Of a stretch of 64,000 nucleotides of DNA, positions 5,826 through 53,482 are shown one piece after another. The notes under the pieces were generated by a model. That model had not been told where the DNA came from. It ran no database searches and worked only from the letters and a program-made list of their open reading frames with translations. The translations under genes were made by a program, and so were the position numbers. The DNA is from Candidatus Woesearchaeota archaeon (GTDB lineage: Archaea > Nanobdellota > Nanobdellia > Woesearchaeales > JACJVW01): assembly GCA_020637435.1 (NCBI GenBank), contig JACJVW010000003.1, positions 4,787 to 68,786 of the forward strand, read 5' to 3'. Positions within the stretch are counted from its first letter, which is position 1; the number at the start of each line of letters is the position of its first letter.

Positions 5826-6239
5826 ATGAGAAAATTCCTATCAAAAATCAGATCGGCTATCAATCCGCCGGAAGAGACTGACCAGGAAGATGGTTATGTC
5901 GAGATTGAGGGTGAATCAGAAAGCCCTCAGAAGAAGATTGTAGTCAGACCTTTCACACTTAAAGAGTTCGAAGATATCAAAGATATTCTGGAAACCCTGC
6001 GGAAAGGGAATACCATTTGTCTGGTCAACATCAAACCGCTCAAAGACAAGGACTTGCTTGAGCTTAAACAGGCTATCAATAAACTGAAGAAGACCTGTGA
6101 CGCTCATGATGGCGAGATAGCCGGCTTTGGTGAAGAATGGATCGTTGTGACTCCATCATTCGCGACAATCTACAAGAGCAAGGCTATGCCTACTGTGGAT
6201 GACGATGATGAAGAACGCTCCAATCTACAGACCTATTGA
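5826..6239 (+). CDS. sepF: cell division protein SepF
   Basis: LRKGNTICLVNI, LKKTCDAHDGEIAG, IVVTP pattern; GGGAGG SD before ATG 5826. Confidence 0.9.
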   Translation: MRKFLSKIRSAINPPEETDQEDGYVEIEGESESPQKKIVVRPFTLKEFEDIKDILETLRKGNTICLVNIKPLKDKDLLELKQAINKLKKTCDAHDGEIAGFGEEWIVVTPSFATIYKSKAMPTVDDDDEERSNLQTY

Positions 6240-6291
6240 TTCTTTTTATTAAGATACTTTTTTAAATTGGTCGTTGTTTGATTCTTCTCAC

Positions 6292-6386
6292 GGGTCCATA
6301 GCTTAGCCTGGTATAGCATTCGGCTCTTAATTGGGCTTTTCCAAGCTGAAACCGAAAGGTCGGGGGTTCGAATCCCTCTGGACCCA
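6292..6386 (+). tRNA. tRNA-Lys(CTT) with 21-nt intron (6330-6350) at position 37/38
   Basis: GGGTCCA/TGGACCC acceptor stem, TTCGG/CCGAA anticodon stem, CTT at 6326-28, GGTTCGAAT T-loop. Confidence 0.9.
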
Positions 6387-6701
6387 TACCTCTTCTTTAA
6401 GTCTATCTGTCTGAACCCCGGGGTTCGAATTGTTGTGAACGAAGTGAACAACATAGACATGAGCTTGCTCATGGCGTTCCCTCTGGACCCATACCTCTTC
6501 TTTAAGTCTATCTTTCTGAACCTTGGGGTTCGAATTGTTGTGAACGAAGTGAACAACATAGACATGAGCTTGCTCATGGCGTTCCCTCTGGACCCATATA
6601 TCTTCTTTAAGTCTATCTGTCTGAACTTTGGGGTTCGAATTGTTGTGAACGAAGTGAACAACATAGACATGAGCTTGCTCATGGCGTTCCCTCTTGGTCC
6701 A
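6387..6701 (+). repeat. 3 x 105-bp tandem repeat, each ending in the tRNA-Lys 3' end with a hairpin cassette in the T-loop
   Basis: Units 6387-6491, 6492-6596 and 6597-6701, near-identical with a few substitutions. Confidence 0.95.
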
Positions 6702-6912
6702 TATACCCTTATTTTTCTTAATTGTGTCGATAGAAATTATGCCTTAATAAGGAGTCTTCCATATGCATGAAGACTACTACTGCGACCCCCCTGGGAGCAT
6801 ATCCCTACTTCCAGAGCAATAACTTTTTAAAGTATAAAATTCCTACTTATCGGAGAGTAGCAACACTCATTCTAAAAGAGGTGCTGAGTACAGCATAGAG
6901 AGGTACAAACAA

Positions 6913-7806
6913 ATGAAAAAAAGTTTAGTGATTATTGGATTACTATTTATGAGCCTGTTCGTATACGCGGAGGGCCAGACACATGTTTATGTAGAAGGAT
7001 ATGTTATGGATGACTTGGGTAACAAGTACGGCAATATGGATGTTCATGCATACATGGACGAGGGAGATGGAGTTTTTTCCTCTTCTGATCGATTGTATGA
7101 TACTGTAGTCTCAGAGCTTTCGAACGGTATACACAACGGCTATTACTGGTTGAATATACCTGCATCTGACTTTGAAGTCGGTGCTACTATGTTCATCGTC
7201 TATCAAAATGTAAGCCATGAAGCTATCGTTACTCTTGCTGACCTTAAAGCCATGAACTATAAGAAGGATCTTAAGATTGTTGAGAAGAACTTAGAAGTTG
7301 AGGGTGTGGAAGCAGAGACTGAAGATTCTATGGAAGAGACATCTGTGGATGAAGTGACTGAAGAGGAGACTGAGGATACTATGGAAAATACTGCTGATGT
7401 AGAAGTAGCTGAAGAAGAGACTGAGGATTCTATGGAAGAGACTTCTGAGGAAGAAGTAGCTGAAGAAGAGACTGAGGACTCTATGGAAGAGACTTCTGAT
7501 GTAGAAGTAGCTGAAGAAGAGACTGAGGACTCTATGGAAGAGACTTCTGATGTAGAAGTAGCTGAAGAAGAAACTGAGGACTCTATGGAGGACACTGTTG
7601 AAGAAGAGGCTGTACCAGAAGAAGAAACTTCTGAAGATGAGTCTGATGCGGAGAAAGACGAAGGTATGCAAGTCACTATGCCAAGCATCGGCGGCAATAT
7701 GTCACTATTCGTCGGAGCAGGTGTCGTCATCATCCTTTTGCTCATCCTGGCTTGGATCTTCAGTTCAAGGTCCAGAGGCAGGAAACCGGACTACGTTGTC
7801 CGATAA
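6913..7806 (+). CDS. secreted, C-terminally membrane-anchored protein with acidic repeat stalk
   Basis: Signal peptide, 17-aa Glu-rich repeats, C-terminal TM helix followed by basic residues. Confidence 0.8.
   Translation: MKKSLVIIGLLFMSLFVYAEGQTHVYVEGYVMDDLGNKYGNMDVHAYMDEGDGVFSSSDRLYDTVVSELSNGIHNGYYWLNIPASDFEVGATMFIVYQNVSHEAIVTLADLKAMNYKKDLKIVEKNLEVEGVEAETEDSMEETSVDEVTEEETEDTMENTADVEVAEEETEDSMEETSEEEVAEEETEDSMEETSDVEVAEEETEDSMEETSDVEVAEEETEDSMEDTVEEEAVPEEETSEDESDAEKDEGMQVTMPSIGGNMSLFVGAGVVIILLLILAWIFSSRSRGRKPDYVVR
7393..7596 (+). repeat. intragenic 4 x 51-bp tandem repeat (SDVEVAEEETEDSMEET)
   Basis: Four in-frame units plus two degenerate upstream units. Confidence 0.9.
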
Positions 7807-22126: not shown

Positions 22127-22304
22127 CTGCATACGTGCCAGCGTCGCATAATCTGGAGAAGATGAGCAATAGCTCACCTTCGGAGAATATTGCGGTGGTC
22201 TCGAAAGATGAAAACTATGGTTTCGTCACGAAACAACCACTGTCCTTGTGACTTCCCGGTTCAAAAACCTACATAGGCTGAAAGTCCGGGCGCTGGCGTA
22301 GCAG
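22127..22304 (+). ncRNA. candidate structured non-coding RNA of unknown family
   Basis: 14-bp closing helix (22127-43 with 22291-304), several internal stems, TATA-like TTTAATAA at 22102-09, terminator downstream. Confidence 0.55.
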
Positions 22305-31899: not shown

Positions 31900-31987
31900 T
31901 TTTTCTAGAGGATTTGACAGATTCCTTTTTAAGAATCTTTCTACTCAAGAAACCTTTAAAAACATACTCTTGTTGCAGTCTTTCCAT

Positions 31988-32117
31988 GCGAGGGTGGCAG
32001 AGCCTGGTCAAATGCGCAGGACTTAAGCGACCTATGATGGAGACAACCAAGCGCGTGCTTGGGTCTAAGTTATCCTGTCCCTTAGTGGGTTCGAGGGTTC
32101 GAATCCCTTCCCTCGCA
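31988..32117 (+). tRNA. tRNA-Leu(TAA) with 44-nt intron (32028-32071)
   Basis: GCGAGGG/CCCTCGC acceptor, CAGGA/TCCTG anticodon stem, long variable arm, perfect BHB (CTTA/TAAG central helix, GACC/GGTC). Confidence 0.95.
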
Positions 32118-32140
32118 TTATTTCTCATTATCCTTCAGTC

Positions 32141-32220
32141 GAACCCTAGGGTTCAAAGTGTTGTGAGCTGATGCGGACAACATAGACATGGATTTTTCCA
32201 TGTCGTACCCTACCCTCGCA
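32141..32220 (+). repeat. tRNA-Leu 3'-end copy with T-loop hairpin cassette
   Basis: GAACCCTAGGGTTC...TGTTG/CAACA-TAGA-CATG/CATG-TCGT-ACCCTACCCTCGCA. Confidence 0.85.
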
Positions 32221-50743: not shown

Positions 50744-51180
50744 AGCCTGGTACACAGACCGAACAAGTTCGTTCTTGCCTTGCTCACTCTCTTCGCAAGG
50801 GATCGTTCGGTTGGCATTGCAATTTCTCCACTATTCTATGTTAAAACTTATAAAGAGATGAACAAGAACTTAGCTATTATGGGCTTGTAGCTCAGCCTGG
50901 TATACAGACCGAACAAGTTCGTTCTTACCTTGCTCATTCCATTCGCAAGGGATCGCTCGGTTGGCATTGCAATTTCTCCACTATTCTATGTTAAAACTTA
51001 TAAAGAGATGAACAAGAACTTAGCTATTATGGGCTTGTAGCTCAGCCTGGTATACAGACCGAACAAGTTCGTTCTTACCTTGCTCACTCTCTTCGCAAGG
51101 GATCGTTCGGTTGGCATTGCAATTTCTCCACTATTCTATGTTAAAACTTATAAAGAGATGAACAAGAACTTAGCTATTAT
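50744..51180 (+). repeat. about 3 x 150-bp tandem repeat of promoter plus tRNA-Ala 5' half with a D-loop hairpin insert
   Basis: GGGCTTGTAG recurs at 50881, 51031 and 51181; the first unit is truncated at 50744. Confidence 0.95.
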
Positions 51181-51276
51181 GGGCTTGTAGCTCAGCCTGG
51201 TAGATCGCTCGGTTGGCACAATCATCATCTGATTCCAAAGATCGAGAGGCCGCGGGTTCAAATCCCGCCAAGTCCA
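51181..51276 (+). tRNA. tRNA-Ala(GGC) with 22-nt intron (51219-51240)
   Basis: G3:U70 pair, GGC at 51215-17, perfect BHB (TTGG/CCAA, AATC/GATT); C11/T24 mismatch in the D-stem. Confidence 0.92.
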
Positions 51277-51285
51277 TATTTTTTC

Positions 51286-51485: not shown

Positions 51486-52223
51486 TTATAATCTTGTGGG
51501 TGTGAGTATGTAGCCTTTGTCAAGGTCGCCGAAGATAGTGCATTTTTTTGGGTTTTTCCAGTAGAAGAAGACGATGTAGGCGCACAACAAAGCATCGATT
51601 TGGTCTTCATAGTCTTTTAATGCCCTGCCCCTCATCCCTATAACTTTTTGCTTGAGAAAATCACACGGAAGCAGTTTGTAGAAGGCATTTTGATATTCTT
51701 TAAAGGCCTGCCACCTGCTTTCATAGGTTCGGCCGGGTTTGTTCTTATAGGGGATTATCTTATCCCTTCTAAAGAGTGTAATGGTGGCGGGATGAGGGAA
51801 TACTTCGTAGAATCTTTTACCTGACTCTTTTGGTTTATTCAGGAAGCTTTGGGTGAACTTCCTCTGTTCCAGGGCAATGCTGATGTCTTCACCTCTAATT
51901 GACCCAGTCCAGCTTGAGAGGCGCTTTCTGTTGGCAGGGTGTGCGCCCGCATGGTGTTTTCTGAATTCTTTGTTGAGGAGCTGTTCTCCCGGGCGGGAAC
52001 CATCTTCGTTGGGTACGATGAGAGGCGCATCGATACCAATAATCGTAGGACTCTTTTGTATGATGCTAAATATGGTCTTAAGGATATTTGCATCGGAATC
52101 ATGGATAGAGATATGGACTATCTGCAAATGCTCATTAATAATTGCGACACCAGATGGGTTCCTGTTGGACCAGGCAAGATCAAGACCTACGAAAAACATA
52201 TACTTAATCCGAATAGCCTTCAT
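51486..52223 (-). CDS. DUF429-family predicted RNase H-like nuclease
   Basis: VGLDLAWS...SGVA, IGIDAPL, EVFPHP, DQIDALLCA. Confidence 0.88.
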   Translation of the reverse strand: MKAIRIKYMFFVGLDLAWSNRNPSGVAIINEHLQIVHISIHDSDANILKTIFSIIQKSPTIIGIDAPLIVPNEDGSRPGEQLLNKEFRKHHAGAHPANRKRLSSWTGSIRGEDISIALEQRKFTQSFLNKPKESGKRFYEVFPHPATITLFRRDKIIPYKNKPGRTYESRWQAFKEYQNAFYKLLPCDFLKQKVIGMRGRALKDYEDQIDALLCAYIVFFYWKNPKKCTIFGDLDKGYILTPTRL

Positions 52224-52924: not shown

Positions 52925-53090
52925 TACAAAACCATTTAATTTAAAAATTAGAAAAAGCAAAGGGTCGTAGTAAGTAGCACCACAGCATCTAGATAACGAT
53001 GCTTAGTTTGTTTGCACAAACTGTAAGCTCAGTAGACAAGCTAGTGGGTTTCTTCGCTAGCGCTCATCAAGCCCAGGAAAATCAGATATT

Positions 53091-53243
53091 GGGGCCGTAG
53101 TGTAGCCTGGAGTTGATCACAGCTGTGGTCATCGGGTACCTATCACTGGAGCTCGGGGTTCGTAGCGCAAATGCGCTGTGCTTCCAAGAAAGCACATAAC
53201 GTACGGACAGCTTCTAACCGGAGTTCGAATCTCCGCGGTCCCA
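53091..53243 (+). tRNA. tRNA-Pro(GGG) with D-loop intron (53111-53139) and 50-nt anticodon-loop insertion (53159-53208)
   Basis: GGGGCCG/CGGTCCC acceptor, GGAGC/GCTTC anticodon stem, GGG at 53155-57; position 33 is C. Confidence 0.75.
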
Positions 53244-53482
53244 TATTTCTTCCTCTGGAATCAGCAATAGAACTCCAGAGTTCGAATTGTTGAGGTTTCC
53301 TCAACATAGACACGGTTTTTCCGTGGCGTACTCCCGCGGTCCCATATTTTTTCCTCTGGAATCAGCAATAGAACTCCAGAGTTCGAATTGTTGAGGTTTC
53401 CTCAACATACCTTGTGTTAACAAGGTTCGAGACTTCAGTTGAAGAAGACATGGTTTCTCCGTGGCGTACTCCCGCGGTCCCA
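53244..53482 (+). repeat. two tRNA-Pro 3'-end copies with T-loop hairpin cassettes (101 and 138 bp)
   Basis: Units 53244-53344 and 53345-53482; the second carries extra hairpins. Confidence 0.92.

Follow-up and report, generated by a model that had tools for sequence, protein, structure and literature searches.

Three tandem 105-bp units stand directly 3' of the tRNA-Lys(CTT) gene of this archaeon, and each copies the 3' end of that tRNA and carries a 48-nt hairpin cassette, here called K, in its T-loop. Our preferred reading, which we hold with moderate confidence from sequence comparison, is that the units are non-functional, intron-bearing tRNA 3'-end copies, which may owe their origin to DNA recombination inside the final ~14 nt of the tRNA and their present number to unequal exchange. 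The array had been described in a first-pass annotation of the same DNA; what is added here is the kinship of the cassette to T-loop BHB introns, the spread of such units to about half of the tRNA genes, and a counterpart in the tRNA-linked repeats (TLRs) of E. coli.

The tRNA-Lys array and its cassette

The window analyzed is a stretch of 64,000 nucleotides (C3:4787-68786) from a genome of 1.13 Mb in 5 contigs (45% G+C, rated 75% complete), whose archaeal character is seen in SepF and in many tRNA genes with protein-spliced introns. The tRNA-Lys(CTT) gene lies at 6292-6386 on the forward strand (95 nt; ARAGORN; Rfam RF00005, 59.4 bits) and is the sole Rfam match at the locus; it has an intact T-arm (GGGGG-TTCGAAT-CCCTC) and an anticodon loop with an intron of ~21 nt, and it is predicted to be a functional gene. 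TRF reports a 105-bp period at 6373-6694 (3.1 copies, 96% matches), in agreement with the three tandem 3'-end copies of the first-pass annotation, and the array at 6387-6701 resolves into units at 6387-6491, 6492-6596, and 6597-6701, all on the strand of the tRNA, with unit 1 starting at the first base past the discriminator (6387).

Every unit follows one grammar: a copy of the pyrimidine-rich 26-nt trailer (S), a 7-nt arm (P), half of the T-arm (A), the insert K, and a copy of the tRNA 3' end (B). In unit 1, which scores 96.9 bits with a covariance model built from K (R1), these parts occupy 6387-6412, 6413-6419, 6420-6429, 6430-6477, and 6478-6491, respectively. Arm P (GAACCCC) is the reverse complement of the 7 nt that follow it, A (GGGGTTCGAA) comprises the 5' strand of the T-stem and the T-loop as far as A59, and B (TCCCTCTGGACCCA) is the last 14 nt of tRNA-Lys. 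The copy in each unit spans T-stem position 50 to the discriminator base, with the trailer after it and positions 1-49 missing, and the units are unable to yield a tRNA. B repeats at 6373-6386, 6478-6491, 6583-6596, and 6688-6701 as a direct repeat flanking the inserted DNA.

The copies are not identical. Unit 2 has P = GAACCTT and one G>T change in the trailer, with A, K, and B as in unit 1, while unit 3 reads TATA in place of TACC, has P = GAACTTT, and ends in CCCTCTTGGTCCA, which departs from B at 3 positions. The palindrome GAACCCCGGGGTTC, whose right arm is the start of the T-arm and which the first-pass annotation gave for every unit, is therefore perfect in unit 1 only, and the match of the unit end to the adjacent tRNA is exact (14 nt) in units 1 and 2 and lost in unit 3, the most distal and most decayed of the array. 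The ~ten differences between units form a graded pattern and all fall outside the 58 nt of A and K; together with the same grammar at other tRNAs, they uphold the earlier argument from substitutions against a simple assembly duplication. T5 (TTATTTTTCTT) first appears after unit 3, and since no oligo-T interrupts the DNA from tRNA-Lys to the end of the array, the primary transcript of tRNA-Lys probably includes the units. Only repeat-driven open frames were found in them; the ORFs 6233-6682(-) and 6435-6770(+), rejected as genes, are open because 105 bp equal 35 codons and lack family support, and the periods of other arrays, not divisible by 3, also argue against a coding reading. Just 3' of the array, a gene with a signal peptide (6913-7806) contains 5.6 copies of a 51-bp coding repeat at 7309-7596, acidic and rich in E, T, and S.

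The three copies of K lie at 6430-6477, 6535-6582, and 6640-6687 on the forward strand, inserted between A59 and N60 of the T-loop copy. The 48-nt insert can be read directly as it was first described: hairpin 1 (UGUUG..CAACA), a UAGA linker, hairpin 2 (CAUGAG-CUUG-CUCAUG), and a GCGU tail. In an alignment of eight K units, which represent only four independent loci, the stems pair in 92% of cells, compared with 30-58% when the partners are slid, and 6 pairs show changes on both sides. A genome-wide motif search, proposed in the first-pass annotation, recovered the hairpin-2 module (TAGACAYG..CRTGKYGT) 12 times, and in every case a tRNA 3'-end copy follows immediately. The exact cassette pattern was absent from the 40 relatives scanned, and a scan of public genome and metagenome collections for the cassette core returned 66 matches; all of these are chance matches, so the cassette sequence appears private to this lineage. 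Readings of K as a C/D-box or H/ACA RNA, a K-turn, a hammerhead, or an integron attC site were dropped, with no match by eye.

Recurrence at other tRNAs and in relatives

An extra copy of the tRNA's own terminal 12-mer, counted with at most one mismatch, occurs in the flank of 12 of the 22 tRNAs called by ARAGORN, with 1-4 units each. By chance, a tRNA should have an exact copy of a 12-mer within 600 nt only ~4e-5 times, too seldom for chance to produce these end copies. They lie 3' of ten tRNAs, and two (Thr-TGT and Ala-GGC) have a mirror image at the 5' end.

At four other tRNAs the K-type grammar is found, with P, A, and B matched to the neighboring tRNA and K in common. K-family units follow a tRNA on contig C1 (three units, 94 bp each) and the tRNA at C1:403244 (one unit). 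In the window (forward strand), tRNA-Leu(TAA) at 31987-32118 is followed by one unit at ~32119-32220 (locus 31987..32220; R1 match 32141-32220) that has its own T-arm and 3' end, and a tRNA-Arg called by ARAGORN at 53090-53244 is followed by two at 53245-53482 (locus 53090..53482), the second with a 37-nt insert nested in its cassette. This two-hairpin module (CCTTGTG..CAAGG TTCGAGAC.. GTTGAAGAA) is placed between CAACATA and GACA of the cassette at two tRNA loci, 53350-53482 of the window and G000 C1:403109-403216 (-); both also have an extra C in the T-stem copy, and the shared features would point to ectopic conversion or transfer between the loci. The tRNA-Ser on contig C2 has four units with K variants in which hairpin 2 is intact, and here, as at C1:403244, both the tRNA and each unit are followed by T6-T7. 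Behind Thr-GGT and Trp, K is more diverged or decayed, and the Met locus resembles a plain 125-bp tandem duplication.

The mirror-image array 5' of tRNA-Ala(GGC) (gene 51180-51277; whole locus 50744..51277, +) consists of 3.1 units of 150 bp. Each contains a TATA-like box/promoter and the 5' exon (positions 1-37, ending at the 37/38 splice site), interrupted in the D-loop at 21/22 by a hairpin insert of 48 nt; if transcribed, the units at 50744-51202 would give promoter-driven truncated tRNA 5' halves. Between this array and the next tRNA cluster lies a gene for a DUF429 protein (51486-52223, -; Pfam E = 2e-18), whose family is predicted to comprise RNase H-like nucleases. A second repeat family in this genome forms tandem arrays with a period of 119-135 (76 bp next to a tRNA) at G000 C1:14154, 40200, 140873, and 539611, at C2:3906 and 60591, at C5:51585, and, right after a tRNA, at C1:188884-189089; its closing stem covaries, its AAATGTAC(R)A and GGAAGCATTT boxes are conserved, its inner hairpin is variable, and no match to it was recognized.

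Related genomes show the same architecture with other cassettes. Units follow Gly-TCC, Lys, and Thr-TGT in G011, a member of the same order but another family, where they combine a different conserved cassette with an imperfect antisense copy of the 3' end. In G002, of the same family as our genome, 4 of 28 tRNAs have units. Among the congeners G001, G002, and G003, the number of units at orthologous tRNAs varies, which shows that units are gained and lost rapidly; the extra Ser-TGA unit of G002 adjoins the gene, and an orthologous hairpin differs between G002 and G003 by a compensatory change. An orthologous array in G003 (L131, contig C17, between tRNA-Ala and tRNA-Val) includes ~100 N and comprises at least two units. 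Genus g2 has a cassette head (GTAAGCTTGAGC..GCGAAACTTAC) homologous to the unit that follows tRNA-Met in this genome; families of cassettes therefore outlast genera and are found at different tRNAs. The sequence ACGAAGTGA, considered as a motif common to the genomes, was dropped because it has 13 chance occurrences in this genome.

T-loop introns in complete tRNA genes

Run over 200 genomes of the order, R1 matched the ten units of this genome and three further sequences with weak scores (23-31 bits), all three of which are complete tRNA genes with an insert in the working T-loop. The pattern 'T-loop + TGTTG..CAACA', applied to 400 genomes, had a background equal to that of the reversed control; among its matches, only those with verified tRNA context were kept, and these added two further complete genes of this kind. 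Inserts in a working T-loop are thereby known from at least five genomes of the order: G183 (tRNA-Lys UUU), G255, G168 (tRNA-Ala GGC), G026, and G044. Those of G183 and G255 read UUCGAA|A-UGUUG..CAACA-UGAA-UU|U or equivalent and fold as a textbook hBHBh', in which the T-stem is the outer helix, the central helix of 4 bp is formed by T-loop positions 54-57 and UGAA (UUCG/UGAA), and each bulge measures 3 nt. The inner helix of the G183, G255, and G168 introns, UGUUG/CAACA, has the sequence of hairpin 1 of K, and the inserts of G168, G026, and G044 are K-like in having two hairpins.

The insertion site is also the same. At 59/60, which corresponds in the T-arm to the canonical 37/38 site, the stem of the arm could serve as outer helix, and introns L159, L165, L164, L139, and L140 are found at this position. 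Two further cases come from this genome: a complete Ser-like tRNA gene at 22137-22298 (+) has a 19-nt canonical BHB intron at 59/60 with a UUCA/UGAA central helix, and a complete gene at G000 C1:138005-138252 (-) has a 124-nt canonical intron at the same place. Both introns end in UGAAAG|U, and both genes have further introns. ARAGORN and the Rfam tRNA model miss the two genes on account of this combination of 59/60 and further introns, and the tRNA set of the genome is under-called.

At the sequence level, hairpin 1 and the insertion site of the cassette thus match real T-loop BHB introns, a match new to this analysis. K appears to belong to one family with the introns at this site in complete tRNA genes of relatives, although the link is drawn from short sequences, namely a 5-bp stem, the insertion site, and the weak model scores of 23-31 bits. 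K differs from the introns in its tail, which reads UGGC-GU at Lys or UGUC-GU at other loci where true introns have UGAA or CGAA. Read from the sequence, the BHB central helix of K has 3 of 4 pairs at Lys, two of them wobbles, and 2 of 4 at other loci. Because this central-helix strand is missing, K is not predicted to be a splicing substrate by the canonical BHB rule, although the broad-specificity endonucleases of such lineages might still cut it. A strict BHB scan of the tRNA and array yielded nothing but a weak pairing, all wobbles, of one GGUUCGAAUUGUU copy with the next; it also missed the gene's own anticodon intron and is thus too stringent to settle the matter. In all seven tRNA genes whose working copy has a T-loop intron, a 3'-end copy is lacking downstream, a suggestive count but one too small for significance.

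Origin of the units and their counterparts

The order 'tRNA 5' part - A - B - S - P - A - K - B' would be expected if an intron-less gene recombined within B with a 3'-end copy that has the intron. We propose that recombination within the last ~14 nt, with B as an att-like core, would park an intron-bearing 3'-end copy behind the intron-less working gene, and that unequal exchange between the repeated B+S segments would then give three copies; newer units would stand next to the gene and older ones would decay distally. The graded distal decay and the gene-proximal extra unit of G002 both agree with units being added beside the gene. Were recombination to occur within A, on the opposite side of the cassette, it would give the arrangement of the relatives, with K as an intron of the working T-loop. 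The Ala units include an untranscribed promoter, so the process appears to act on DNA. A retro-copy origin was rejected on the same ground, and the sole reverse transcriptase is of the retron type and located in a defence island.

That integration at this part of a tRNA occurs in the genome is shown by a 25.7-kb island (C1:66516-92230), a bona fide integrase-borne element bounded on one side by tRNA-Thr(TGT) and on the other by 16 nt that repeat the 3' end of this tRNA exactly from A58 on, with a tyrosine integrase (C1:90897-92165) adjoining the tRNA; its att repeat covers the same tRNA part as the units. The island also encodes the retron-type reverse transcriptase (C1:70937-72715; PADLOC RT_III-A, E = 3e-72) and large ORFs that we take to be restriction-modification-like; to our knowledge, retrons have rarely been reported in archaea. 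Several observations weigh against recombination as the origin of the units. The 75%-complete genome has three tyrosine-recombinase matches (PF00589), one of them inside the island, and all are on contig C1; the contig of the window has none, which bears out the earlier remark that no integrase is nearby. No match to a Y1/RAYT-type transposase (PF01797) was found in the genome, and Cas1/casposase is absent. No recombinase is linked to the arrays, yet ten or more tRNAs carry units, and a classical tRNA-specific integrase would not serve so many different tRNAs. The units are also gene-free and only 64-150 bp long, and recombination within B does not account for the 7-nt mirror arm P, whose geometry, GAAC-N6-GTTC, is reminiscent of a recombinase core site and equally of a template-switch junction.

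The sequence evidence appears compatible with intron loss, with intron gain, and with neither. More tentatively, and as a proposal we think has the weight of likelihood against it, the gene-free units may be DNA-level vehicles of archaeal tRNA intron gain and loss, that is, miniature att-like intron-bearing ends. Recombination 3' of the cassette would park K behind an intron-less gene, as in this genome, while recombination or deletion 5' of the cassette, between two GGGGTTCGAA copies, would install it in the working T-loop; an installed cassette would survive only if it formed a BHB, the state found in G183, G255, G168, G026, and G044. At 5' ends (the Ala and Thr arrays), the same vehicle would serve D-loop and anticodon-loop introns.

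The closest described system is that of the E. coli TLRs, for example the 178-bp repeats after tyrT-tyrV (rttR/tpr). According to the review in PMC8144298, which covers the work of Egan & Landy (1978) and Rudd (1999), there are 22 TLR units at ten loci, with 1-5 units per locus and 18-19 bp of 3' identity with the upstream tRNA; the 19 units in tRNA operons are given there as having no known function, while the three in rRNA operons (RrA/B/F) are processed sRNAs that bind Hfq and CsrA. As a control, we reproduced the tyrV array of MG1655 as three 178-bp units, each containing a copy of the T-arm 5' half (CGACCAAGGTTCGA), a hairpin-rich insert, and then a 3'-end copy with the exact 19-nt tRNA end. 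The Lys units resemble them in lying directly 3' of the tRNA on the same strand, in sharing the 3' end of the upstream tRNA, in the A-insert-B plan, and in recurring at several loci per genome (here 12 of 22 tRNAs, 1-4 units each). They differ in that the E. coli repeats are bacterial, have no sequence relationship to ours, include CCA in the copies, and are associated with no intron system; transcription of the E. coli units is established (RttR), whereas that of the archaeal array is predicted, and the archaeal insert appears to belong to a family also found as true introns.

Comparison with att duplications and with known introns gives a similarly divided picture. As in an att duplication, a restored working gene stands first, a displaced or extra copy lies downstream, and a tRNA 3' segment is directly repeated; the intron-like insert in a tRNA copy is what the Caldiarchaeum model of Sugahara et al. 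(2012, PMC3293823) postulates, in which an intron is gained by recombination between an intron-bearing attP and an intron-less attB; and the true integrase island of this genome uses the same tRNA segment, that of tRNA-Thr(TGT). Unlike att duplications, the units are tandem, gene-free, 64-150 bp in length, and endowed with common hairpin cassettes, they affect many different tRNAs with no integrase on the contig, and they have mirror-image arrays at 5' ends. 'Intron transposition' among archaeal tRNAs was described by Fujishima et al. (2010), as cited in PMC4090602, a review that calls its mechanism unknown. K, at 59/60 and with an inner helix identical to that of the G183, G255, and G168 introns, recalls BHB introns, and the presence of similar inserts at different tRNAs is reminiscent of the spread reported for related introns; K differs in being found in truncated gene copies and in lacking one strand of the central 4-bp helix. 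With REP/BIME, MITE, and PATE elements, the units share being short, gene-free, hairpin-forming, and multi-copy, with covarying stems. In contrast to these elements, all 12 hairpin-2 modules are at tRNA ends and none elsewhere in the genome, and the units have no terminal inverted repeats, no fixed target duplication, and no Y1/RAYT transposase here.

The main alternative to non-functional end copies is a functional trailer RNA: the units would be working small RNAs, co-transcribed with tRNA-Lys and cut out by tRNA end-processing through the copied 3' end, with K binding a protein or RNA. We consider this unlikely, although much at the Lys locus would suit it. The oligo-T-free stretch ends with T5 just after unit 3, the C>U changes in arm P preserve G.U pairing on the sense strand only, the hairpins covary, and three E. 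coli TLRs are processed sRNAs (PMC8144298). In particular, the invariance of K over the three Lys units while their flanks vary, together with the compensatory change between orthologous units of G002 and G003, suggests a constraint that a dead scar would not need. Set against this, the units at C1:403244 and after the tRNA-Ser on contig C2, each behind a T6-T7 run, would be poorly transcribed; no recurring promoter-like box is found in 3' units; the acceptor 3' strand has no partner in K units, which would not be tRNA-like processing substrates; families differ in architecture, some with a mirror arm, some with an antisense 3' end, and some with neither; decay is seen in distal units; and the 19 tRNA-operon TLRs of E. 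coli are still without a function (PMC8144298).

A second alternative, which we judge decidedly unlikely, dispenses with any site-specific enzyme: replication would stall at hairpin-rich DNA beside heavily transcribed tRNAs and switch templates, giving tandem duplications with short inverted junctions (the mirror arm), and ectopic gene conversion through the conserved T-loop would spread K and keep the copies matched to their tRNAs. The inverted micro-duplications exactly at unit junctions, the plain appearance of the 125-bp Met duplication, and the failure to find a dedicated enzyme all favor such a process, as do the Arg and C1:403244 units, whose common nested insert and extra C combined with their own acceptor strands are as in homology-bounded conversion tracts. 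However, the grammar of the units and the places of their junctions recur too regularly from locus to locus and from genome to genome, members of one cassette family stand at different tRNAs in more than one genus, the cassette occurs nowhere but at tRNA ends, and only ~10 nt of homology would be available for conversion between different tRNAs.

It is very improbable that the units are spare or alternative 3' exons, in which K would be spliced out or pieces trans-spliced, as in a split or permuted tRNA, to give tRNA-Lys or another isoacceptor. K does occupy a real intron position with the inner helix of true introns, and no tRNA-Lys(UUU) gene was found in the 75%-complete genome; yet the gene before the array is itself complete and its T-loop intact, K lacks the UGAA/CGAA strand of the BHB central helix, and the strict scan, which missed a known anticodon intron, found no usable motif. 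In a genome of which ~25% is missing, we found no orphan or second tRNA-Lys 5' piece, nothing complementary to leader or cassette beyond isolated 14-mers at scattered places, and, in a further difference from split and permuted tRNAs, no separate 5' piece with a trailer that pairs with the unit leader. Finally, we give hardly any credence to inflation of one copy to three by the assembler, which short repeats in a metagenome-assembled genome might invite, given that the copies differ by ~ten substitutions in a graded manner and that many tRNAs, in this genome and in independently assembled relatives, have comparable arrays of other periods.

If the preferred reading of the units as parked, intron-bearing tRNA ends is correct, they would bear on how short protein-spliced introns spread among archaeal tRNAs, an open question for which the sole concrete proposal concerns one Caldiarchaeum case (PMC3293823). 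One cassette family would exist in two states, as parked tRNA-end copies in this genome and as canonical introns in the working T-loops of relatives, and this pairing makes the intron-gain proposal testable. Standard finders miss tRNAs with T-loop introns here, and missed genes and partial copies alike can distort tRNA gene counts. The E. coli TLRs, known for decades and unexplained, are extended to archaea with the same internal plan, and by analogy the shared plan suggests a common process that may act at the tRNA genes of both domains.
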